Below, piece after piece: positions 10,459 to 26,370 of a stretch of DNA of 64,000 nucleotides. The position numbers were made by a program, and so were the translations under genes. Origin of the DNA: an uncultured Planctomycetota bacterium (GTDB lineage Bacteria; Planctomycetota; Planctomycetia; Gemmatales; Gemmataceae). Location: assembly GCA_963849325.1 (NCBI GenBank), contig CAWKHF010000006.1, positions 448,001 to 512,000 on the forward strand, read 5' to 3'. The notes under the pieces were generated by a model. The model did no database searches. It was not told the DNA's origin and worked only from the letters and a program-made list of their open reading frames with translations. Positions within the stretch are counted from its first letter, which is position 1; each line of letters opens with the position of its first letter.

Positions 10459-11541
10459 TCACGGCAGGGCGACCGTCTCCAGGTTGAGCTTCTTGTCCTG
10501 GGTCCGCATCAGCACCAGAGCATGTTCCTTGTCGAAGGCGTCCAGGTGTTCCGTCCCTTGTAGACTCTTGATCGTCTCATAGGGAAGGCCAGCCGTGCCC
10601 TTGACGGGCTTGGTAATGGCCTCGACCTTGTCGATGCCATCAGTGGGGATCTTCATGACGCCGCGCCGGTTGTTGGCCAGCAGGATGTAATCCTTGCCGT
10701 CCTTCTTGTAGACGATCATGTCCAGCGGCCGATTGCCGTTGCCCAGCTCGGCGATGGTCGTGCCCTTGACCTTGGCGCCGGGCTTGAGGTCGGCGACCGG
10801 CACCTTGACCAGCGGCGTGCAGGTGTAGGCGGCCAGCAGGTTCGCCTCGCCCTTGATCTCATAGGGCACGAAGGTACGGATGGGCGATTTCGTCTCGACC
10901 CGAGCGTGCGAGCCGTGGTAGATCTCGACGCCCGTGCCCGCGTCCACGTCCTTAAAGGGGAAGGAGAGGATACGGAAGCGCGAAGCGAACTCCTCGTTGG
11001 ACAGGCAAGCGACGTACAGCCGACCGTTGATATAGCCCATGTCGGTGATGGCTTCCTGACCGCCGCGGCCGCCGGACGGGTTGGGCAGTTTGGTGCGGGC
11101 GAAATTCACGTCCTTGAGCGATACCTCGGCGAGCTTGCCGGAGCGCTCGACACGCAGCAGAACAGGCTTGCCGTCGGCGCCCTTGCCGCGCGTCACCGAC
11201 AGGTAGGCGCTGCCCGACAGGGGATTGACGGCCAGGTCGTTGATGGCGAGTTGGCTGGACTCGATGCCCAGCAGCGAGGCGATTTTCTCATCGAGCGCCT
11301 CGACCTTGGGGCGCTCCGAGCCGGCGGCGGCGCGGTCCTGCGTGTCCACGGCGACGATGGCGGCGGTGCGCGGGTCGGCGAGGAACAGGATGCCTTCGGG
11401 TCCGAAGGTCAGGGCACCAATGGACTGTAGCTCCGGCGTCCCTTTCGTCAGGCTGTCCCTCGGGCCGGCGGCGCGGGCCGAGCCGGCGAGCAGGACGACG
11501 GCCAGCGCCAGCGGGGCGAGGCGGATTGGCGAGCAGGTCAT
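10459..11541 (-). CDS. Secreted hypothetical protein (probable beta-propeller)
   Basis: Intact ORF, signal peptide, AAGGAG RBS; EIYHGSH and AAYTCTPLV conserved-looking motifs. Confidence 0.7.
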   Translation of the reverse strand: MTCSPIRLAPLALAVVLLAGSARAAGPRDSLTKGTPELQSIGALTFGPEGILFLADPRTAAIVAVDTQDRAAAGSERPKVEALDEKIASLLGIESSQLAINDLAVNPLSGSAYLSVTRGKGADGKPVLLRVERSGKLAEVSLKDVNFARTKLPNPSGGRGGQEAITDMGYINGRLYVACLSNEEFASRFRILSFPFKDVDAGTGVEIYHGSHARVETKSPIRTFVPYEIKGEANLLAAYTCTPLVKVPVADLKPGAKVKGTTIAELGNGNRPLDMIVYKKDGKDYILLANNRRGVMKIPTDGIDKVEAITKPVKGTAGLPYETIKSLQGTEHLDAFDKEHALVLMRTQDKKLNLETVALP

Positions 11542-11709
11542 GCTGTCTACTCCTTGCACACGGGCGAAGCGGGGAATCGGGTGGATACGATGCTCCTTAT
11601 GATGCCGCTTCCGTGGCACAAAGCAAGTTAGAAATGGATGAAGGGCCGGGAAAAGGTTACGAAGGGAGCCTTGTCGTGACAGCGGACCTTTTGTGGACGC
11701 GGCCTCGTC

Positions 11710-12087
11710 TCAACTCACCCCCGCCAGGTCTTTGAGCTGCAGCGCCAGTTTGGCGATCACCAGTTGATTCAAACTGACGCCCTCCACGGCGGCTTCGCGT
11801 TCGAGGGCCGCGTGCAACGAACGCGGCAGACTCACGACCAAACGACCACTTCGTTTGGGCGTTGCGCCGGCCGACAAGCCGAATCGGTCCCGTGCCTCTT
11901 CCAGCAATTGCCGGATTTGTCGGTATTCTTCCGTTTGCATGAACGCTTCCCGCTCCGCGCGCGTCTCAAACGACCGAGAGACGATCCCTTCAAGCGGATC
12001 AAACAAAGCGTTGGACAAATCGGCCCAAGAGGTGACGGAGTGCGCCAACTCCTCGGCCGCACGCAGCAATTCCTCGGCTTTACTCAT
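11710..12087 (-). CDS. HicB-like antitoxin / ribbon-helix-helix protein
   Basis: C-terminal SGRLVVSLPRSLHAALEREAAVEGVSLNQLVIAKL is the typical HicB RHH. Confidence 0.75.
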   Translation of the reverse strand: MSKAEELLRAAEELAHSVTSWADLSNALFDPLEGIVSRSFETRAEREAFMQTEEYRQIRQLLEEARDRFGLSAGATPKRSGRLVVSLPRSLHAALEREAAVEGVSLNQLVIAKLALQLKDLAGVS

Positions 12088-12240
12088 CGTTTCCCTTCCC
12101 CTCCCGGTATCGTGCTGCCGTCGTTGAACGTCAGGGGAATGAGGAGCGTGACCTTCTTGAGCATGTTCCCATATTACCATAGAGAGAGGCCGCCATGAAG
12201 AACTCGACCGTCCGGTTCTGCCGCTCTCTCGGAGATCGGC

Positions 12241-13722
12241 GTGGACGTGAGGTTTGAGACGAAACATCCGGGAGTGCATGTTGTGGGCGATGGCGACGGC
12301 GGCTTGCAGCGGCAGTTCGGCCTGTTGCAGGCGACGGCCCTGAACATGACCACGATCGTCGGCGCGGGCGTGTTCATCACCATCCCGCTGATGCTCGACA
12401 AAATGGCGGGACCATACGCTCTGCTCGGCTGGCTGGCCGCCGGCGTGCTGGTCCTCGTGGACAGCCTGGTCTGGAGCGAGTTGGGCGCGGCCCTGCCCGG
12501 CTCGGGCGGTTCGTACCTGTATCTGCTGGAGTGCTTCGGCCGTCCGCGTTGGGGCCGGCTGATGGCCTTCCTGTTCATCTGGCAATTCCTTCTCAGTGGG
12601 CCGCTCGAGTTGGCGTCCGGCCTCATCGCCATGGACTCGTTCTCGCAATCGCTCAGTCCGGCCTTCCAGGCGTACAACCGCGCTCACACTTTCCAATTCA
12701 TCCTCTCGGCGCGACAGGAGCTGGACCTGACCGTTAGCCCGGCTCGGCTGGGCTGCGTGGCCGTCGGCTTGCTCCTCATCGTCTTGCTGTATCGCCGCGT
12801 CGCCGTCCTTGGTCGCTTGACGGTGCTGCTCTGGCTCGGCGTCCTGGCCGTCATCGCCTGGATCGGTGTCGAGGGCATCCTGCACTTTGACGCGGCACGG
12901 GCGTTCGATTTCAGCCAGCCCGGGCCGGCGAACCCGGGGACCGCGCTGGGCGCGGTGATGATCCTGGCGCTGTACTCGTACCTGGGTTATTACAACATCT
13001 GCTATGTCGGCGAGGAGGTCCGCGATCCGGGACGGACGATCCCGCGCGCCATCCTGCTCAGCGCCGTCCTGGTGTGCGTGCTGTTCGCCGGTCTGCACCT
13101 GGCCATGCTGGGAACGGTGCCGTGGACCGAGGCGCTGGCCGGGCGCCAGACGTGGAAGGATGAGTACAGTCTGCCGGCGGACTTCATGGGACGCATTCAT
13201 GGGCCGTGGGCGGTGCGGCTGGTCACGGTGCTGCTGATGGGCAGTTGCTTCGGTTCCGCCTTCGCCGGACTGCTGGGCTATTCGCGCATCCCCTACGGGG
13301 CGGCGCGGGCCGGACATTTCTTCGAGGCGGTCGGGCGCGTCCATCCTCGGCATCGCATCCCGCACGTGTCGCTGCTGCTGGTCGGCGCACTGACGCTGTT
13401 CTGGAGTTTCTTCGATCTGCAAAACGTCATCAACGCCCTCATCACCACCCGCATCCTCGTGCAATTCCTGGGGCAGATCGTCGGCGTCTTTCTGCTGCGG
13501 CGATCGCAACCGAATCGGCCGCGACCGTTCCGCATCTGGTTCGCCCCGTTGCCGTGCGGCCTGGCGCTGGCCGGCTGGCTGTACGTCTTCGCGGCGTCGG
13601 GAACCTTGTATGTCGTGTTGAGTGTGCTGGTGCTGCTGGCCGGGACGGCCGCCTTCCTGTTCTGGTCGGGGCGCACCGGAGGCTGGCCGTTCGCCGACAG
13701 AGGGCCGAAGGTGGTACAATAG
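12241..13722 (+). CDS. APC family amino acid permease
   Basis: IVGAGVF, GGSYLYL, GEEVRDPGRTIPRAI, ~12 hydrophobic segments. Confidence 0.9.
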   Translation: MDVRFETKHPGVHVVGDGDGGLQRQFGLLQATALNMTTIVGAGVFITIPLMLDKMAGPYALLGWLAAGVLVLVDSLVWSELGAALPGSGGSYLYLLECFGRPRWGRLMAFLFIWQFLLSGPLELASGLIAMDSFSQSLSPAFQAYNRAHTFQFILSARQELDLTVSPARLGCVAVGLLLIVLLYRRVAVLGRLTVLLWLGVLAVIAWIGVEGILHFDAARAFDFSQPGPANPGTALGAVMILALYSYLGYYNICYVGEEVRDPGRTIPRAILLSAVLVCVLFAGLHLAMLGTVPWTEALAGRQTWKDEYSLPADFMGRIHGPWAVRLVTVLLMGSCFGSAFAGLLGYSRIPYGAARAGHFFEAVGRVHPRHRIPHVSLLLVGALTLFWSFFDLQNVINALITTRILVQFLGQIVGVFLLRRSQPNRPRPFRIWFAPLPCGLALAGWLYVFAASGTLYVVLSVLVLLAGTAAFLFWSGRTGGWPFADRGPKVVQ

Positions 13723-14840: not shown

Positions 14841-15799
14841 ATGAGCATGAGCCACTTCGCCGACCGTCTGGCCGCCGCCGTGCGGGCCAAGGGCAACGCC
14901 GTGTGCGTCGGCCTCGATCCGCGCTGGGAATCGCTGCCGGCGAGCCTGCGCGATCGCCACGGCGGTGCGACGCTGGCCACGGTGGCCGCCGCCTTCGAGG
15001 AGTTTTGCGGCCGGGTGCTCGACATCGTGGCTCCGCTGGTGCCGGTGGTCAAGCCGCAGAGCGCCTTCTTCGAGGCGTGCGGCCCGGAGGGCATGGCCGT
15101 GCTGCAACGTCTGTTGCGCAAGGCCCGCGACCTCGGTCTGCTGACCATCCTCGACGGCAAGCGCAACGACATCGCCTCGACGGCGGCCGCCTACGCCGAC
15201 GCCGCCTTCGCCGGCACGCGCCTGGCCGGCCGTACCTATCCCGTCTGGGAGGCCGACGCGCTGACGATCAACCCCTATCTCGGCCGCGATGCCGTCGAGC
15301 CGTTCCTGGAGAGCGCCCGCCGCGCCTCGCGCCGGGCGTGTTCGTGCTGGTGCGGACCAGCAATCCAGGCGCCGGGCAGTTCCAGGATCTGCTCGTTTCC
15401 AGCGGTACGGAGCCGGCCCGACCGTTGTATCAGCACGTCGGCGCCGCCGTGTCGGCCTGGGCGCGGGAGAACCTCGGCGCCTGTGGCCTGGGCGACGTCG
15501 GCGCCGTGGTCGGTGCGACGTACCCGGCCGAACTGGCGATGCTGCGGGCGATTTTGCCGGAGGTGATCTTCCTGGTGCCCGGCTTCGGCGCTCAGGGGGG
15601 CACGGCCGCCGGCGTCGCCACCGCCTTCCGCTCCGACGGACTGGGCGCCGTCGTCAACAGCTCGCGCGGCATCCTCTTTCCCTTCTCGCCCACCGAGCCG
15701 AACTGGGAGGTGCGTATCGACGAAGCGGCTCGCGCCGCTGTCGCCGCCCTGGCGTCAATTGGCAAAGATGTCGGTGGCGGCGGCGCGCGGCGCTCGTAA
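14841..15799 (+). CDS. pyrF: Orotidine-5'-phosphate decarboxylase (one frameshift near 15330)
   Basis: CVGLDP, KPQSAFFE, DGKRNDIAST, LVRTSNPGA, VVGAT, LVPGFGAQGG, VNSSRGI. Confidence 0.93.
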
Positions 15800-15870
15800 C
15801 ATGAGAGGAATACGGATTCATCCCCCAAGCCGCCGGCGTCGGCGGTGCCATCACCCCAACGAGAGTTGCC

Positions 15871-17139
15871 GTGGTCTATCCCAAAATCGTTCGCATTCGT
15901 CAGAACTTCGAGCGGCCTCGGGTGGCCGACATCCCCGCGGCCGTCGCTTCGACCCTGGAGAAACTGGACCTGGGCCAACGCATCCGGCCCGGCCAGACCG
16001 TCGCGCTGACGGCCGGCAGCCGCGGCATCGCCAACATCCCGCTCATCCTGCGCAGCACGGCCGCCTTCCTCAAGAAACTCGGCGCCAAACCGTTCCTCGT
16101 CCCGGCGATGGGCAGCCACGGCGGCGGCACCGCCGAGGGACAGCGGCAGCATCCTCGAAAGCTACGGCATCACCGAGGAGTTCGTCGGCGTGCCGCATCC
16201 GCGCCTCGATGGACATCGTCGCAGGTCGGCGTCACGCCCGAGGGCTTTCCCGTCTTGCTCGACCGCATCGCCTCCGAGGCCGACCACATCGGCGTCGTCG
16301 GCCGCGTCAAGCCGCACACCGGCTACCACGGCCCCATCGAGAGCGGCCTGATGAAGATGATGATGATCGGCCTGGGCAAGCACGCCGGCGCCCTCGCCTA
16401 CCACCGCATCCTCCTCGAACACCCTTACGACCAGGTCGTCCGCTCGGTCGGCCGGACGCTGCTGGCCGCCGCCCCCATCGCCTTCGGCCTGGCCCTGGTC
16501 GAGAACGCCTACGACGAGACGGCCTCGATCGAAGCGGTCGCGCCCGGAGACGTTCGAGGCGCGCGAGGAGCAGCTGCTGGCCGAGGCGCGACGTCTGCTG
16601 GCCCGGCTGCCGTTGCGCGAGGCCGACCTGCTCATCGTGGACGAGATCGGCAAGAACATCAGCGGCTCGGGCATGGACACCAACGTCGTCGGCCGCAAAC
16701 GCGCCTTCCGCGCGCCAGCCGCCGCCCGGACGGACTCGCCGATCCTGCGACTGATCTTCGTCCGCGGCCTGACGCGCGAAGACGCACGGCAACGCCACCG
16801 GCATCGGCCTGGCCGACTTCACCACGACGCGCCTCGTCCGGCAAATGAACTACCGGGCCACCGTCATCAACTGCCTGACGGCCGGCTATCCCGATGGGGC
16901 GTTCCTGCCGGTCCATTTCGAGACCGACCGCGAAGTGCTCGACGCCGCCCTGGCGATCATCGGCACGCGGCACGCCGGAACAGGCGCGGCTCATGCGCAT
17001 CCGCAACACGCTGCACCTGGACGAAGTGGAGGTCTCCGAGGCGTGTCTGACCGAGCCGGATCGGCAAACCGATTTCACGCCGATCGGCCGGCCTCGAACG
17101 CTGGAGTTCGACGCGGCCGGCAATCTGCCACCCTTGTGA
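15871..17139 (+). CDS. LarA-like lactate racemase-domain / DUF362-type protein (frameshifted)
   Basis: TAGSRGIANI, PAMGSHGGGTAEGQ, RVKPHT, ESGLMKM, GKNISGSGMDTNVVGR. Confidence 0.75.
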
Positions 17140-18600: not shown

Positions 18601-18640
18601 CTGTCCAAAATGCGCCTACCTGGCTTGGAGCGACGATCGC

Positions 18641-20391
18641 ATGGCTGGCCGATGCTTTTACGTCTCGTGGGTGGACCTTCGCACCGATCCGTGGCCGCAG
18701 TGGGAGAAGGTCCGACCCGGCACCGGGGAGATGATGCTGGAAGGGCAACGCATCCGCTGCCTGCCGGTCGACCATCCCCACTGGCCGGCCGTCCCGCTGC
18801 TGGAGCAGGCGGGGCCGCCGATGGTGGCCGACCCGCGCCTCGGCCGCTACGTCTGGCCGGGCATCCCGCTTGTGCTCGACGGCCGACCATGCCGCCTCTA
18901 CACCGGCCCGACGCTCAGCGCCCTGTTCCATCCGGGCAGTCGATTCTGCAATCTCGAAGGACTCGATGTCGTCTACCTCTTGTATCAGCCCGAACGCGCG
19001 GACGGATCGCACGAGCTGTTGCGCAACGTCCTCGCCCGACTCTGCCAGGCCCGCGACATCCAGAACGCGGACAAGCGAATCCAGTTCGTGGACGTCAAGG
19101 GCATCGCCGACCCAACCGACCACGCCGCCATCATTCGAGCGATCGAACAATGGCTGGGGCGGGACGACCCGTTCGATCTCGGCCGCCGCGGCTCGGCGAA
19201 AAACCCGCCGCGCATCGTCATCAACCTGAGTCCGGGCACGCCGTCCATGCACGCCGCCTGGCTGATGCTGCGCTGGAATGGAGCGCTGGGCGGGCGGAGA
19301 GTATCGTCGAATTCGTCCAGGGCGACGGCGGACTGGTCGAGCGCTGCCGTCGAGGGACCGCCGCCCAACCCGCTGCGCATCGTGCCGATCGACGTGCTGG
19401 CTCAGTGGTCGGCCGCAACGGGGGCTGGCGCCGCAGCCGGCCCTCGGCCCGGAAGAACCGAGCGTGCCGCTGGAAGAGCTGAACGGCCCGCCCTTCGACG
19501 ACCTGCGCCAGAAGATCGACCACGCCGCCATGCTCGGCCTGCCGATCCTCTTGCAGGGCGAGCGCGGCACCGGCAAGACGTTCCTGGCCCACTACTACCA
19601 TCAGCGCCGACAATTCTACGCGCCTTCCAGGCGGAGCGAGGCCGCGCCGGCCAAGACCGGCGGCGCAAGGCGACGGCAAGGAGGCGATGCGAAAGGCCGC
19701 CGAACGCTTCCCGGAGAAGACCGGGCCGAGCAGCTTCGTCGGCGTCACGCTGTCGGAGTTCGCCGACCTCGATACGCTGCGCGACACGCTGTTCGGCTGG
19801 GCCAAGGGAACGCCTGGACCGGCGCCTACAAGGCGTACGACGGCCTGCTCGGCGAGGCGCACGGCGGCACGCTGTTCCTCGACGAGATCCACCACCTGAC
19901 CCGGCCGTTGCAGGCGGCGCTGCTCGGCCCGCTCAACGCCGCCGCTATCGCCCCAAGATGGCCGACCTACGAGGTCATCAGCCACTTCGACCTGGTCGTC
20001 GCCACCAACGATCCGCAAGTGGCGCGACAAGATGGCCGACGACTTCCGCGACCGCATCGAGCGGATCGTCCTGGAGGTGCCGTCGTTCCGCTCCTTTCAG
20101 CGACACGGGGCGGACATCATCTGGCGGTTCTGGGAGTTCACGCTCCGCCGCCGCTGCCGCGAGTGCGGCATCGAGTACAGCGGCGAGGGACGGGCTTGGC
20201 CGGAGTGCTGCGAGCAGCTGAAGGGCTGTTCCGACGTCACCCGCTGGCGCGGCAACTGGCGCGATCTGCAACGCCTGGCCGACAACTTGCTGCTGCATCT
20301 GACCTCGTCCCGCGACGGCCGGCCGTCGCCGATCCGCTGGGACCGCGACAAGCTGGAGCACGCCATCGCCGAGACGTTCGCGGAGACGTGA
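18641..20391 (+). CDS. Sigma54-interacting AAA+ activator (bEBP) with N-terminal CARF/RtcR-like domain and no evident C-terminal HTH (frameshifted)
   Basis: N-term VSWVDLRTDP...GPTLSAL...IADPTDHAAI...INLSPGTPSMHAAWLML (RtcR-type CARF-like). Walker A QGERGTGKT, TLFGWAKG/AWTGA (GAFTGA loop), Walker B TLFLDEI, LQAALL, VVATND, WRGNWRDL (sensor II). Confidence 0.85.
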
Positions 20392-20438
20392 GGGGGGAGC
20401 GACCGCCTCGGGAGGATATGCCGTTCGGAGGAATTGTC

Positions 20439-21458
20439 ATGGCCAGACGTGCCGGTGTGCGCAAGGGCATTCAGAAACAGGGACAGACGCAGGTGCAAAT
20501 TCAGACCACCATGCGGCGCCGGGCCGGCGTGGAGGAACTGAGTACCTGGCAGGAGACGGCAGTTCGCCCCGGCGTTTCCCCGCGCGGCGGCGACCTGGGT
20601 TACGATGAGGAGGCGGACGGCGATCAGCTGCTCGACGACGGCGAGGAATCCGGGTCCAGCGAACCGACGGGCGATGATTGCTTCCAACCCGAGGAGTCGG
20701 ACGATGAGCCGCAAATCCGTCATCGGCTGACAGTGGCCGATCTTCTCGGTTCACGACCTCCGGTAGTGCTTCTCCGTCTGAGCCTGGAAAACGGTGCGGT
20801 CGCCGTTCGGACCTGTGCGCGACCGGCTTCGCGCGATGCCGGCCAGGCTCTGGAGCTGCTGCGTGACTTCGTGACTCGATGCTTCCAGGATGGCCGCGCT
20901 CACTTCACGGACGCCGAGTGGGACCAGCTGCTCGGCAATGCGCGTCGCCGTTGGTCCGCCGTTTAACGCTGTTGCTACGACTGGCGGTCAAGGGCCGAGA
21001 GAAGGTCCGTCTCGACGAGGAGAGCGAGGCGGCATTCACGCCGCACGACATCGGCCTGGAGCGCTTCGCCAACAAGTTCGCCGCCCTGCCGGACGGCACG
21101 CCGTTCAGCATTCGTCTGCTCTTGTTGGACCAGCGCGGCCGCGAGCGCGGCGAGCACTTCTTCGATCAACTGCCCGAACGCCGTCAAGCTCCTGGCTCTG
21201 CGGCGGGCCTTGCAGCGCGAGCGGCAAAAGGGCGTGGCGGTCAGCGACCACGAATTCCGCGACGAGATCCAGCACGCCCTCGAAGAACTGCTCGGCATGG
21301 AAGTGCCCAAGCCCACCGAAGACCAGGTGCGGCGACGCCTGCGCGACAACTTCAAGCGCAAAGGTCTGGGCGACCTCTTCCCCAACCAGGCCGCCCGCCA
21401 GCGCGAGCACGACCGGATGGCGGCGACTGCCCCCGTCCGTACCGAGGAATCCGCATGA
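20439..21458 (+). CDS. Divergent sigma54 (RpoN)-like factor, ~339 aa (two compensating frameshifts near 20940 and 21180)
   Basis: Gln-rich N-terminus (QKQGQTQVQIQTT) and acidic linker. HDIGLERFANKFAALPDGTPFSIRLLL resembles HESTISR..KY..P.G.F.LK.FF. RERQKGVAVSDHEF resembles E...PLSD..L, and FPNQAARQR resembles IP.S..R. GGAGG RBS; ATGA overlap with the next gene. Confidence 0.6.
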
Positions 21459-24400
21459 GCGCCAGCCTGCTCGCGCATGTCGGTCTAGATCTTGTCACTC
21501 CTCGTGTCGCAGCCCTGCGGCTAGGGGAGTTGACCGTCGAGCCGGTGCAAACCGTTCTCGGCCGCGCCGACCTGGCGGGTAGCTCGCGCCCACTGCCATC
21601 TAGTGCCGTGCTCTTGAGGCTCGGCGATCAGTCGTTGTGGCTGCCCGCACCAGCCGCACCAGCCGCGCCGTCCGAGCCGGACGAAGGCCGAGCACCGATC
21701 TATCTGCACGGCGGACAAGAACTCGTCCTGCCCTTCGTCCGTCTCTTCGTTCTCCAAGCCGACCAGGAACCGGACAAGGCACGGGTCGAATACCTGGGTC
21801 TGTCCGATTGGTTGGACGACGCCGTTGCCGTGTGGCGCTTCGAGCCGGCACGGCGGGATGGCTCCCCCCGTCCGCTGCTGGACCATCTCGAACAAAACGC
21901 GACTTCGCCGGCCGAAGCCTTGCAAGCGATCAGCCGGGTACTTTGTTTCGCCTTGTTTGGCGCGGCAAGCCCGGCCGTGGTCGGTGGCCTGCGTCTGCCC
22001 GCCTGTCCGATGTGGCTCCGCCCCGTAGGAGAAACGCCATTCGCGCGCCGTATCGCCCGCGCGCTGGTGGTCACTGCTCGCCTCTCGGCCGATCCCGCCA
22101 AACCGACCGTGCCCTCCACGAACTTGCGGACATCGGCCTACCGCATTCGCCCCGCCGAGCCGCGCGATTGGGGTCTCGATCCCGTCCACACGCCGGAAGG
22201 CGCCGACATCCGCCTGACCGGCCGACTCGGCGTCGGTGTCGCTGTGCGCGGCCGGGCGCTGCACGCTCCGGAGACGGAACGGCCGCCGTTGTCGGCGTCC
22301 ACGGCCCGGCTGCCGTTCGCCGGCTACAACGACCCTCGCCGTCTGCTGATGGCCGCCAACATGCAGGCACACGCCGTGCCCCTGCCGCGACAGGAACCGC
22401 CTTGCGTCCGCATGACTCCCGAAGCGGATGACCCGCCCGGCGTCAACCTCCGCGTCGGCTACCTCGCCTGGCAGGGTTGGAATCACGAGGACGCCTGGGT
22501 GCTGTCCGAATCCGCAGCCCGGCGTCTCGGCACGCTCCAGGTTCTGGTGCAGACCATCGCCATCCGTGCCGTCGAGGTGGCTCCCGATCTGCTGGTGCAG
22601 TGCGGCCAGCCGGTCGAACGTGGCCAGCTGCTCGTCCGTCGTTTTGTGGCCCCGGCCTTGCTCTGCCCGTCGCTGGAACTGCTGGCGACGCTGGAAGACC
22701 TGGACGACAAGGTACCGCTTCGGCCGGAGGTCGATGACTCGGCTGCGGAGAGCGGCACCATCATCCGGCTTGAAGAATGGGACCTGCGCGACCGGCGCGG
22801 CCTTCCGATAGACTGGCAAGTGCCGGAAGCGGTGGCCGGGGCATTCCGGACTGTTTATCGCATCCACATCGAACGCGCGCTGCCGCTGAGCGTTGGCGAC
22901 AAGCTGGCCAACCGGCACGGCCACAAGGGCGTCGTCGGCGCCATCCTGCCCGATGACGACATGCCGCGCTGGCGCGGTCGGCCGCTGGAAGCCCTGATCG
23001 ACCCGATCAGCGTCCTCAACCGCTCTAACTGGGGACAGGTCTACGAGGCACTGGCCGGGGCGCTGGTGGAGCCGGGTCAGGTGCGCGACGTCAACGGTGT
23101 CTCCGGCGAAGAGGTGCGGGCGGAGGCACAACGGGCAGGGGCCGACGCACAGGGCCGTTGGCTCATCGAGCCTCCGATGGCGGCACGCTGGTTGACGAAG
23201 GAAGTGCGCGCCGTCGCCGGTGTCCAGTACGTCATGCGGATGCCGCATCACGCCGCCGACAAGATCTCCGGCAATCCTCCACCGCCGCCATCGTTGGGTT
23301 ATCGGGTGCGCCGCCGATCGCAGCGGCTAGGCGAGATGGAGCACTGGGCGCTGTGGGCGCACGGCATCGGTGCGCACGGCCTCCTCCGCGACCGAGGACG
23401 GCGGACAGAGGGCGCTGTCTCCCGCCGTGGCCCGTCTTCGCCGCTTGCTCGGGTCGGCCGGGTTCGGCATGGACGTCGAGGGCGGATCGCTGCTCGTTCG
23501 GAAGCTGGCGCTCGACGCGGAGCCACCCGCTGATAACAAGATATTATCTCTCCTTAAAGAGAATGAAACAAGCACCGCGGAGAGCGGCGTGGAGGGAAGC
23601 AAGGAAACGAAGTCCCCGCGATCCCTGGCCGAACTCTACGACGCCCTGGATGCGGTCGCGCCCGAAACGCCGACCGTACTCGTCTTCGATCCGCCGCTCC
23701 TCCGCCCATCCAAGGGGGATGACGTCGAGGTGGCGCTGCGCTGGATGCCCGTGTTGCCCGCCTGCGATCGCCCGCCGCGGCGTTGGTTCGACGGCTCGGA
23801 GGAGCCGCACGAATTGACCGCCGACCTGCGCCGCCTGGTCCGCCTGATTCGCAAACGTCGGCAAGCGCGGACGGAAGACGAGGACGCCGCCAACGCGGAA
23901 CTGTTCTACGCCGCTCGCCAGTTCCTATCCGATGCCTACATCGCGGCGGTAGGGCGCGGGGCGACCGGCCCATTCAGCAGTAAACTGGCTTACTTGCGTC
24001 GCGGTGTGCTGGGGCAGCGCTTGCCCCGCTCGGCACGGGCGACCGTCTCTCCCGGCGGTACGCGGCGTTTGGGACTGGACGAAATCGGTCTGCCGCCGGC
24101 GCTGGCCCACACTCTTTTCGGGCCAGGACTGCCGAGCGAGGAAAACCAGTTGGCCGAGGTCGTCGCCGGCCGCTGGGTGTGGCTCAAGCGCGATCCGGTA
24201 TTGCACCGCTGGGGTCTGCTGCCGGTGCGCGTCCGTGTCGTACCCGGCGTCACTATCCGCCTGCCGGCGTCGCTGCTGGGACCGCTGGGGGCCGATTTCG
24301 ACGGCAACACGGTCGCCCTCTTCGCCGCGTTGCCCGGTGCCCTCGCCGACCTCCACGCCTGTTCGCCGCCGGCGCTCGCCTGGCACCCGTTGCTCGACGA

Positions 24401-25307
24401 AGCCCTGTTCCAACCGAGCAAGCAGTATCAATACGGTCTTTTCCTTTTGTCACAAAGCAGAGAGCAAAAGGAACGATTGCAACTGGCGTTGCAAGCCGAG
24501 GGCGCCCTGACTTGGCCGGATGAGTCCGACCCCAAAAGGGCATTTTCAACCTGGGTCCGTCAGGCCATCCAGCAGGGACCGAAAGGACATTGGTGGGCCA
24601 TCCTCGAAGTATACGCCCTGCACGCCCTGGCCGACGATCCCGCGATGGGCTTCGGCCTAGGTGACGTGGACGAACTGGCGCGGTTGCCGGTGGTCCGTTG
24701 CGGAGCGGCCAAGGATCTGTATGGCGGTGTCGAGCCGCCGGCGTCCCCCGCGGCGCGGACGGACTGGGAGCGAAACCGGAAGGCGATGGCGGACATCTTG
24801 CACGGACAAAGCCTGACGATCTATCGGCGCCGCGGCGATTTGGGCGATCCTATCGCCGACGTCATGGTCGCCGCCAAGGCGTCCATCGGCCAGTTCGGCG
24901 GCGCCCTGCGCCGGCTGGTGTACTCCGCGGACCATCTTCGACCCGAGGACATCCAAATGGCCCAATGTCTGACCGAGCAGGTCACGCAAAAGGCGCTGAG
25001 CGTCAAAGCGGGCAAGCCTCCGCTGTTGTACGCCGACTTCGAGCGGCAGCTGCGGCAACTGCTCAAACGGCAAGAGTTGAATGAATCCGAGCGGGAGAAA
25101 CTGCAAACGCTGCTGGCTGAGATCGGCAAGAAACTGGAGCCGGTCTGGACGGCTTTGGGTTCGTTGATGCCGAGCGAACCCAAAGCCTGGTTGGAATGGC
25201 TGCGGAAGCCGCACGAATTGGACGAACTCGTCGCGGCGAAGGGCGAGATTCGTCTGCCGCTGGACGATTTACGCTTACGCGCGTTCCTGTCGGAGCCTGA
25301 AGCGTAA
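21455..25307 (+). CDS. Minimised two-barrel RNA polymerase, beta-like plus beta'-like, probably one fused ~1,280-aa polypeptide (frameshift near 23370-23400)
   Basis: Beta motifs: DPVHTPEG, NDPRRLLMAANMQAHAVPL, GVNLRVGYLAWQGWNHEDAWVLSES, VGDKLANRHGHKGVV, DPISVLNRSNWGQVYE, YVMRMPHHAADK, SQRLGEMEHWAL. Beta' motifs: MPVLPACDRP, LRRGVLGQR...SARATV, LKRDPVLHRWG, GADFDGNTV, PSKQYQYGLF, QFGGALRRLV (bridge helix), AQCLTEQVTQ (trigger loop). Confidence 0.9.
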
Positions 25308-25340
25308 GCGAAGAAATCCCTTCGCTTACGCTTCAGGCTC
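25293..25340. repeat. REP-like palindrome family A, copy 1 (contains the RNAP-like stop codon)
   Basis: GAGCCTGAAGCGTAAGCGAAG...CTTCGCTTACGCTTCAGGCTC. Confidence 0.9.
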
Positions 25341-25355
25341 GGAAAGAGGACCTTG

Positions 25356-26186
25356 CTAGGCGAGTCCGTCGGGGGCGTTGCTGAAAGTGCCGTGGCCGAA
25401 GCGGATTTTCGGCGGCGTCACCTTGGTGCGGTGATCGGGGGCGGCGTTGCGGCCGGCAGCGTCCTGGCCGTGGAAGTAGTCCTTCTGCCAGCCATCGCCC
25501 CGGACTTCGCCCTGGGCTTTCTGCTGGTGAAACATGTTACGCGATTTCTGCCACTCCAGGTAAGAGTTGTACACCTCGGGGTTGTCGGCCAGGCGGTTGT
25601 AATTGATGGTGGCCCCTTCGAGGTCGGCGCAGACGTTGCTGATCAGGGGGACCGCCTGGAAGAGCGGCTCGCCGACGTTGTAACGAACCGGCTCATTGGG
25701 CCGCATGATCTTGTAATTCATCGTGAACGACATGCTGATCCAGTCGCTCTCGACCAGCGCGGTGAGCGGGTGCAAATTGTGCTTGAAGTAGTTGACCGGC
25801 CCGAGGATCAGCAAGCGCGAGCCGGGAGGATTGGTGCGGAAGAGGAACGGTGTGTTCCAGGTGATGATGCCCTCGCCGAACTGGTTGTTGATCCAGCCCA
25901 TCCAGAACTCGGGGGCCGCGTCGAACCAGAACTCGATGGTGCCCGGCTCCATCCGGCCGCGCCAGATGGCGGTGAAGCCGACCGGGTTGTTGATCCAGAA
26001 GCCCGTCTGGTTCATGATGGTCAGGGGCAGGCAGCGGTAGGCGTGGTGGCTGGGCGTGGCGTCCATCCATTCGCGCCGCCTCTCGGCCCAGCCCCAGTCC
26101 CAACCCGTGCCGTCGCGGCGGTGCTTCTTCAGCGTCTCATCGCCGGCAATTTGATAAATGTTGATCTCAAAAGGCGGTTGTGACAT
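25356..26186 (-). CDS. DUF6065-like hypothetical protein
   Basis: RREWMDAT...AYRCLPLTIMNQTG...FGEGIITW...VESDW...FTMNYK...WQKDYFHG. Confidence 0.75.
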   Translation of the reverse strand: MSQPPFEINIYQIAGDETLKKHRRDGTGWDWGWAERRREWMDATPSHHAYRCLPLTIMNQTGFWINNPVGFTAIWRGRMEPGTIEFWFDAAPEFWMGWINNQFGEGIITWNTPFLFRTNPPGSRLLILGPVNYFKHNLHPLTALVESDWISMSFTMNYKIMRPNEPVRYNVGEPLFQAVPLISNVCADLEGATINYNRLADNPEVYNSYLEWQKSRNMFHQQKAQGEVRGDGWQKDYFHGQDAAGRNAAPDHRTKVTPPKIRFGHGTFSNAPDGLA

Positions 26187-26370
26187 GGCTGCTCCAGGAT
26201 CGGGACCGGCCCGATGCCATCGAGAGGGAATCGTACTCGATAGCAAGTGCGCGGCCGGCTGAGACGGATCTCCCCTCAATCCCTAGCAAACGTCCAAGGC
26301 TTCGTCAAGCGAACGCCGCCGCTTTTGCGGGGCCGGTCCCGAGCCGCTTGCGGCTTCGCGGCAACGGGTC

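Follow-up and report, generated by a model that had tools for sequence, protein, structure and literature searches.

Single-chain or fused two-barrel RNA polymerases (RNAPs) are already known, and so are RtcR-like proteins encoded outside Rtc loci. YonO, from the SPbeta prophage of Bacillus subtilis, is an experimentally active DNA-dependent single-chain RNAP of about 100 kDa, for which the description in PMC5467207 speaks of 'very distant homology' to multisubunit RNAPs. Orf6 of the yeast killer plasmid pGKL2 (982 aa) and NCgl1702 of Corynebacterium (2,169 aa) join Rpb2::Rpb1 or beta::beta' in this order in one chain with heavy domain loss, as described in PMC2919709. RtcR is a sigma54 activator of the rtcBA RNA repair operon built as CARF-AAA+-helix-turn-helix (HTH), and RtcR-like proteins unlinked to Rtc are said to adjoin restriction-modification genes (Makarova et al. 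2014, PMC4012209). Here we analyze a stretch of 64,000 nucleotides from an uncultured Planctomycetota bacterium of the Gemmataceae (the window), which carries a CARF-AAA+ gene, a gene for an acidic protein and a gene for a fused mini RNA polymerase, and in which the catalytic loop of the polymerase is written with Asn in place of its third metal-binding Asp.

The window gene with this loop is best read as the beta'-like half of a beta-beta' fusion in a single chain, a bacterial-type two-barrel RNAP of about 1,280 aa. The original prediction had taken the locus for a standard beta/beta' pair, and this had to be abandoned: the product is a divergent paralogue, in all probability a fused mini-polymerase, and the canonical rpoB and rpoC were located on contig C1 of the same genome, the window gene not being the housekeeping rpoC. 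The Pfam models RNA_pol_Rpb2_6 for the upstream half and RNA_pol_Rpb1_2 for the downstream half (residues 263-319 of the open reading frame (ORF) 23370-25307, E 2.2e-11) both matched above the Pfam gathering score. The NCBIfam rpoB models matched the upstream half at E 4.7e-32 but far under their cut-off. NCBIfam scores against cut-offs were 110.7 vs 896 bits and 32 vs 819 bits, and the equivalog models for housekeeping RpoB and RpoC were likewise far from being reached (24.7 vs 963.5 bits for rpoC, 106.2 vs 801 for rpoB).

In the window the gene appears split into ORFs of 884 aa and 645 aa, with a +1 frame change between the halves. The beta-like half is collinear with the single-ORF homologues at the related loci L017, L018 and L065, the tblastn pieces of homologues join at 23379-23383 or 23362/23409, and the homologues themselves are unbroken across the junction. 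Single ORFs of 1,286 aa (L017), 1,340 aa (L018), 1,652 aa (L022), 1,300 aa (L065) and 1,212 aa (L066) were found, and four of the 15 proteins returned by the first homology search (P0004, P0009, P0010 and P0011) continue as a single chain through GEMxxWALWAH into the beta' part. Because the relatives are single ORFs and rpoB and rpoC of this assembly are broken in the same manner, the split is best explained, as far as alignments can tell, as a +1 frame error of the assembly.

The fusions constitute a rare family of compact proteins of about 1,200-1,650 aa (about 140 kDa). When the family profile was run against 1.84 billion representatives, 106 proteins scored at E <= 1e-30, and 39 representatives of the family exceed 1,100 aa. 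Positions 280-690 of the family profile aligned with solved bacterial beta chains (~535-1160, E 3.1e-58) and positions ~660-988 with solved beta' chains (~165-516, E 5e-37). The structure was modelled on the full-length homologue P0025, not on the window protein, and the AlphaFold model, obtained with 43 aligned sequences, reached a mean predicted local distance difference test score (pLDDT) of 88.6 and a predicted template modelling score of 0.90; its best Foldseek matches were bacterial RNAP beta chains (E 2.8e-22, 700-830 columns). No match to the PADLOC defence models was detected for either polymerase half or for the full-length homologues.

With the housekeeping RpoB and RpoC the fusion shares both double-psi barrels and the catalytic motifs, but it is one polypeptide of about half the mass, encoded by a rare accessory gene. 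With YonO, compared by its description (PMC5467207), the family has in common the single polypeptide, the two-barrel core and the aspartate triad, whereas it is larger, is readily recognised by rpoB/rpoC models and is linked to a CARF-AAA+ gene. Its order of halves in one chain is that of pGKL2 Orf6 and NCgl1702, although the first belongs to a eukaryotic cytoplasmic plasmid and the second is a lone corynebacterial giant, and the passages on them in PMC2919709, on which this comparison is based, mention no CARF-AAA+ partner. A group of sister fusions was also detected (P0095, P0103, P0109, P0117, P0118, P0122 and P0124), of about 1,275-1,450 aa, with the more canonical strand NRxPSLHKY and a loop of the form [GNA]AD.DGD with M mostly next (e.g. 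GADFDGDQM), so that the fused mini-polymerases form a superfamily wider than the clade studied here.

The loop GADFDGN of the original prediction was confirmed by direct reading of the codons; it lies in the frame of ORF 23370-25307, the translation of which includes LLGPLGADFDGNTVALF. The Asn codon AAC is a single transition away from GAC, and the changed G is preceded by C, which makes it a CpG site. As written, the window record lacks the D-x-D-G-D triad (it reads D-F-D-G-N) and is one metal ligand short. The beta-side catalytic residues had been described as kept, and they are indeed present in the upstream ORF 20879-23533 as GWNHED, GDKLANRHGHKG and NRSNWGQ; the ED pair, the two Lys (GDKxxxRHGxKG) and the Arg (NRSN), which we take from the RNAP literature to be the catalytic residues, are all found in the window, and their columns are invariant in 43 full-length members. 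The resemblance of the loop is not due to chance, since the region around it aligns to canonical beta': hhalign of this region against the canonical beta' of relatives gave a probability of 99.4%.

It had been proposed that, if most homologues read DFDGD, the polymerase would be an active one and the change a local error or mutation. In the alignment all homologues keep the Asp, which points to an active-type family and to a local error or mutation in the window. GAD[FY]DGD was found in 13 of the 13 first homologues, the nearest of which, at 59-66% identity, keep the Asp. Among 66 further family proteins of at least 430 aa, 64 extend over the triad columns, every one of them with D, D, D, and two are truncated. 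D-x-D-G-D is also present in 14 of 14 related loci, having in mind that one of the two patterns of the metagenome scan included the final D, in such a way that its 7 loci are a biased sample, whereas the patterns used for genome contigs lacked it. The alignment of the full-length members likewise shows no exception at the three Asp or at the Gly (43/43).

When the window was compared with the invariant columns of this alignment, the Asn was its sole departure, 1 of 43 columns with all members and 1 of 60 with the core 36, while leave-one-out controls gave 0-3 departures, with one outlier at 10. Comparison of the beta' half with the 13 first homologues gave two departures at 70 invariant columns, D313N and P380L; the other proteins gave 0-4, and the divergent P0016 gave 25 of 93. 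With only one departure from the invariant columns there is no sign of relaxed constraint or of general decay, and the gene does not behave as a decaying pseudogene either, showing 1 frame switch in 3.85 kb (background about 1 per kb) and 1 of 60 columns departing. These alignments support that the Asn is a single-base peculiarity of this record and not a property of the family. As for the Leu codon behind P380L, if its ancestor was CCG it would also be a CpG transition, like the Asp-to-Asn change. The positions of these features are collected in Table 1.

Table 1. Features of the module, its surroundings and the frame-broken essential genes of the same assembly (window positions, except where a contig is given).
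Feature	Position	Strand	Evidence or details
RtcR/PspF-like CARF + sigma54-type AAA+ ATPase gene, no C-terminal HTH	18620..20388	+	tblastn with L065, L018 and L022 homologues
Middle gene: acidic protein, about 320 aa, no assigned fold	20472..21458	+	28% identity, E 1e-19, to L065:4889-6043
Beta-like half; second double-psi barrel with GWNHED, GDKxxNRHGHKG, NRSNWGQ, GEMEHWALWAH	21455..23362	+	Pfam RNA_pol_Rpb2_6, E 2.9e-22
GWNHED	22475-22492	+	upstream ORF
GDKLANRHGHKG	22895-22930	+	upstream ORF
NRSNWGQ	23018-23038	+	upstream ORF
+1 frame change between halves	23363..23411	+	three-frame translation; downstream frame open only from 23331
Beta'-like half: KRDPVLHRWG barrel strand, catalytic loop, helical C-terminal domain	23412..25307	+	Pfam RNA_pol_Rpb1_2, hhalign, family alignments
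Catalytic loop GADFDGN	24288-24308	+	codons GGG GCC GAT TTC GAC GGC AAC
Third metal-binding Asp replaced by Asn, codon AAC	24306-24308	+	
CTG (Leu) replacing the Pro of 13/13 first homologues	24507-24509	+	codon read; invariant-column comparison
DUF6065 gene, tail to tail with the polymerase gene	25356-26279	-	E 1.4e-63
Frame-broken essential genes (rpoB, rpoC, one gyrA copy, one secA-like copy; 3-10 pieces)	C1 334.9-343.1 kb, C14 48.4-51.0 kb, C1 105.9-107.7 kb		

The reliability of the record was analyzed in the assembly of the window genome (G000: 14 contigs, 8.16 Mb, 84.7% completeness). Single-base indels were found at about one per kb, rpoB and rpoC included. The rpoC gene of this assembly lies in three frames, both breaks being one inserted base outside homopolymers, and it is one ORF of 1,453-1,511 aa in 18 relatives; rpoB is broken into four pieces and has two garbled runs, one copy of gyrA is in about ten pieces and another is intact, and one secA-like copy is in five. 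As essential genes are frame-broken, any frameshift or point 'lesion' in this genome is to be distrusted. The three-gene module shows about 7 frame switches in 6.7 kb (at least 4 in the CARF-AAA+ gene, 2 in the middle gene and 1 in the polymerase), which matches the background. A completeness of 84.7% despite only 14 contigs is consistent with genes broken by indels. Elsewhere in the window, at 14841-15799 and 15759-16848, pyrF-like (OMPdecase) and LarA-like (Lar_N) genes each appear split over two overlapping frames, and these splits are probably further assembly frameshifts.

Substitutions were measured on repeats. The assembly holds at least five families resembling insertion sequences (IS), each of 1.3-1.5 kb and with 3-5 near-identical copies (e.g. 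C1 908-2416, C12 656.6-658.2 kb, C4 141.4-142.7 kb). Within 20 copies of 5 IS families, the 16 near-identical ones hold 16 private substitutions, about 0.7 per kb, and all 20 copies together show 8 private indel columns. Ten of the 16 substitutions are G:C to A:T and six are at CpG; since the G at 24306 follows a C, the Asp-to-Asn change falls in this same class.

The origin of the Asn was weighed on the assembled consensus sequence, a look-up of sequencing runs for 21400-25400 having returned none. As its likeliest single cause we take, tentatively and at a little short of an even chance, an error of the consensus, the assembly being error-rich; the true codon would then be GAC. Several data weigh against an error. 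The figure of 0.7 per kb is an upper bound on substitution error, because real mutations are inseparable from errors in it. At 689 columns that do not vary among 18 relatives, the RpoC of this assembly has 0 private differences, and when RpoB, RpoC and one more gene were compared with 11 closer relatives, 28 private differences were found at 1,821 invariant columns, 25 of them in the garbled RpoB runs, in such a way that isolated private differences were only 3, against 0-12 in same-genus controls, with no measurable excess. The documented errors of the assembly are indels, not substitutions. G to A at CpG is also the commonest natural mutation, and other copies of the gene decay in nature, as L019 (frames 2/1/3 plus a TAA) and L023 (frames 1/3) show. 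By our own estimate, an error rate of 0.1-0.7 per kb over about 8 target sites gives a chance of about 0.1-0.6%, and because a real mutation of the triad is about as likely in a dispensable gene, the odds of error and of allele are near-equal. A genuine private missense allele, a recent null or strong hypomorph with folding and nucleic-acid binding intact, is accordingly a serious candidate, although we would not put it at even odds either. It might mark the onset of neutral decay in a dispensable accessory gene, or be a knock-out favoured by selection owing to the cost of the active enzyme. The lack of a measurable excess of substitutions in rpoB and rpoC favours it, as do the rarity of this accessory gene (1/40 relatives; 0/400 other genomes of the phylum), the visibly degraded copies L019 and L023, and a CpG transition being the typical natural mutation. 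However, the rest of the protein is intact (59/60 core invariant columns), one frame break in 3.85 kb is at or under the background of about 1 per kb, knock-outs usually come as a frameshift, stop or deletion and not as a hit on one of three codons, and the assembly is demonstrably unreliable at the single-base level. If the allele were real the enzyme should be crippled: with one carboxylate of the Mg-A site gone, nucleotide addition would be severely impaired or abolished. The triad is described as holding a tightly bound Mg2+ that serves both RNA synthesis and RNA cleavage (bioRxiv 10.1101/2024.06.20.599782), and YonO with all three triad Asp changed to Asn was reported to make stable elongation complexes without RNA extension (PMC5467207), which also fits a real allele.

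The original prediction had set a read error or allele against an enzyme that is altered or dead and serves another purpose. The first half of this alternative is supported, as all homologues keep the Asp, and the second has found no support, as no relative shares the Asn. We consider it very improbable that the Asn marks a deliberately inactive polymerase, whether this drew off phage anti-RNAP proteins as a decoy, served as a scaffold for sigma or lay on DNA as a roadblock. The motifs that determine the fold and contact nucleic acids are retained, and a function by binding only is physically possible, given that the triad-to-Asn YonO still formed elongation complexes (PMC5467207), but such a role would be expected to be conserved across a clade, and 0 of 64 relatives share the Asn, the nearest (59-66% identity) having kept the Asp. 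Furthermore, the beta-side catalytic residues are no less conserved than those of active-type members, all other invariant positions of the protein are unchanged, the neighbourhood suggests no such role, and little of the canonical enzyme is left, only beta' ~165-516 and beta ~535-1160 being detectable by sequence. By itself the Asn, most likely an error or else a lesion private to this record, has little to teach beyond caution about catalytic-site changes in long, error-rich assemblies. The context of the module is more interesting. The family is clearly bacterial-type and confidently foldable and, if active, would be tractable as a minimal model for the core of multisubunit RNAPs.

The gene upstream in the module was read in the window in frames 2/3/1/3/1, with at least four frame switches. 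Pfam Sigma54_activat was detected on window ORF 19278-20966, and the window copy aligns to its homologues over both the CARF and the AAA+ parts. Three of these homologues match the PADLOC model RtcR_PspF1--CARF_AAA_HTH (E 4.6e-49 to 9.2e-64) over profile positions 18-397 of 468. Because the profile is unmatched past positions of about 390-397 of 468 and the proteins end about 30 aa after the AAA+ lid, the HTH is missing. Their best NCBIfam match is RtcR (E 7.6e-29 and 1.5e-32), at 101-113 bits against a cut-off of 650. The loops equivalent to GAFTGA read DAFTGA, GSFTDA and GSWNLA. The protein shares with RtcR a CARF part followed by an NtrC-type AAA+ part, and differs from it in the missing HTH, the altered GAFTGA loop and its neighbour, which is a mini RNA polymerase and not rtcBA or restriction-modification genes.

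The middle gene contains 2 frame switches and ends in a TGA (21456-21458) that shares bases with the polymerase ATG (ATGA). Besides the similarity given in Table 1, its product is weakly similar to L018:7025-7975, a 316-aa ORF (E 0.007). It had no match in Pfam, NCBIfam or PADLOC, and a homology search gave only 3 proteins; against the ESM Atlas, a model of pLDDT 0.50 (on the 0 to 1 scale) gave scores of at most 0.80 and template modelling scores of at most 0.25, nothing usable. An ORF upstream of the fusion in L066 was considered as a homologue of the middle protein and rejected, as it is a class I Trp/Tyr-tRNA synthetase.

A gene for an RtcR-like CARF-AAA+ ATPase precedes the fusion in five of seven lineages, usually with a small acidic protein. 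It is present in the window, followed by the middle gene, in L018, followed by the 316-aa ORF, in L019, where it is partial, in L022, and in L064, L065 and L067, which were counted as one lineage. It is absent from L017/L066, with 6.1 kb of upstream sequence in L066, and from L069/L070, with 2.3-4.2 kb of upstream sequence. We found in the literature no description joining a CARF-AAA+ protein to a beta-beta' fusion, although supplements, such as that of PMC4012209, may list such neighbourhoods.

Intact members of the family carry the full two-metal site, divided between a barrel with D-x-D-G-D and a second barrel with the ED pair, two Lys and an Arg, and they would polymerise RNA through the two-metal mechanism of multisubunit RNAPs. 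The upstream CARF-AAA+ ATPase and the acidic protein presumably control or assist the polymerase. By analogy with RtcR as described in PMC7790460 and PMC9650030, the CARF domain would sense a nucleotide-like or RNA-fragment ligand, and the AAA+ motor would either remodel the mini-polymerase directly or work through the host sigma54. The repeated pairing suggests that a motor of the enhancer-binding type may have exchanged sigma54 for a private polymerase as its target, under the control of a small molecule or RNA fragment.

In its strongest form, this idea makes the locus an autonomous signal-gated RNA-synthesis module, in which the CARF-AAA+ protein acts directly on a sigma-independent single-chain polymerase and the Asn is a natural knock-out of a costly enzyme; we consider this combination unlikely. 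The trigger would be a nucleotide or damaged-RNA signal, the motor, having lost its DNA-binding domain and with an altered sigma54-contact loop, would act perhaps through the small acidic protein, and the role would lie in defence or in the response to RNA damage. It is possible, and in our view better placed, that the CARF-AAA+ protein is an ordinary sigma54 enhancer-binding protein, which switches on downstream genes through the host holoenzyme and does not act on the mini-polymerase, though we would still count this as doubtful. Its AAA+ domain matches the Sigma54_activat and RtcR/PspF models, rpoN is present in the genome, and enhancer-binding proteins without a DNA-binding domain are known. 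Against this, the HTH is absent, the GAFTGA loop that contacts sigma54 is variable, and the genes of L018 and L022 lie only 3 nt apart, which leaves no room for a promoter; moreover, the window contains 67 matches to the -24/-12 pattern where 65 are expected by chance.

The family is rare. A true homologue was found in 1 of 40 relatives, and no homologue was detected in 400 other genomes sampled from the phylum. No family member was found in 50,697 phage or 72,556 plasmid records, where nothing but rpoB-like pieces turned up, none of them spanning more than 25% of the query. The copy in that one relative, a metagenome-assembled genome (MAG) of the Gemmataceae (G020; L019 6140-9755), is the degraded one already mentioned, and its loop still reads GADFDGD.

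The surroundings of the fusion were also compared among loci. L022, from a low-GC Spirochaetes MAG, encodes the 1,652-aa fusion with a long N-terminal extension, and a CARF-HEPN gene (Csx1/Csm6-like, E 5.6e-8) lies directly downstream of it at 11386-12945, which ties the module to CARF-type signalling twice. In L065 (10543-17847, minus strand) the downstream genes encode a PLD-type nuclease, a 440-aa protein without assignment and a 1,489-aa superfamily 1 (SF1) helicase, a neighbourhood that looks like a defence island. In the window genome, an upstream phosphoesterase gene is kept in 12 of the 12 relatives searched. The DUF6065 gene is not syntenic in relatives, and a polysaccharide export and glycosyltransferase cluster lies beyond it.

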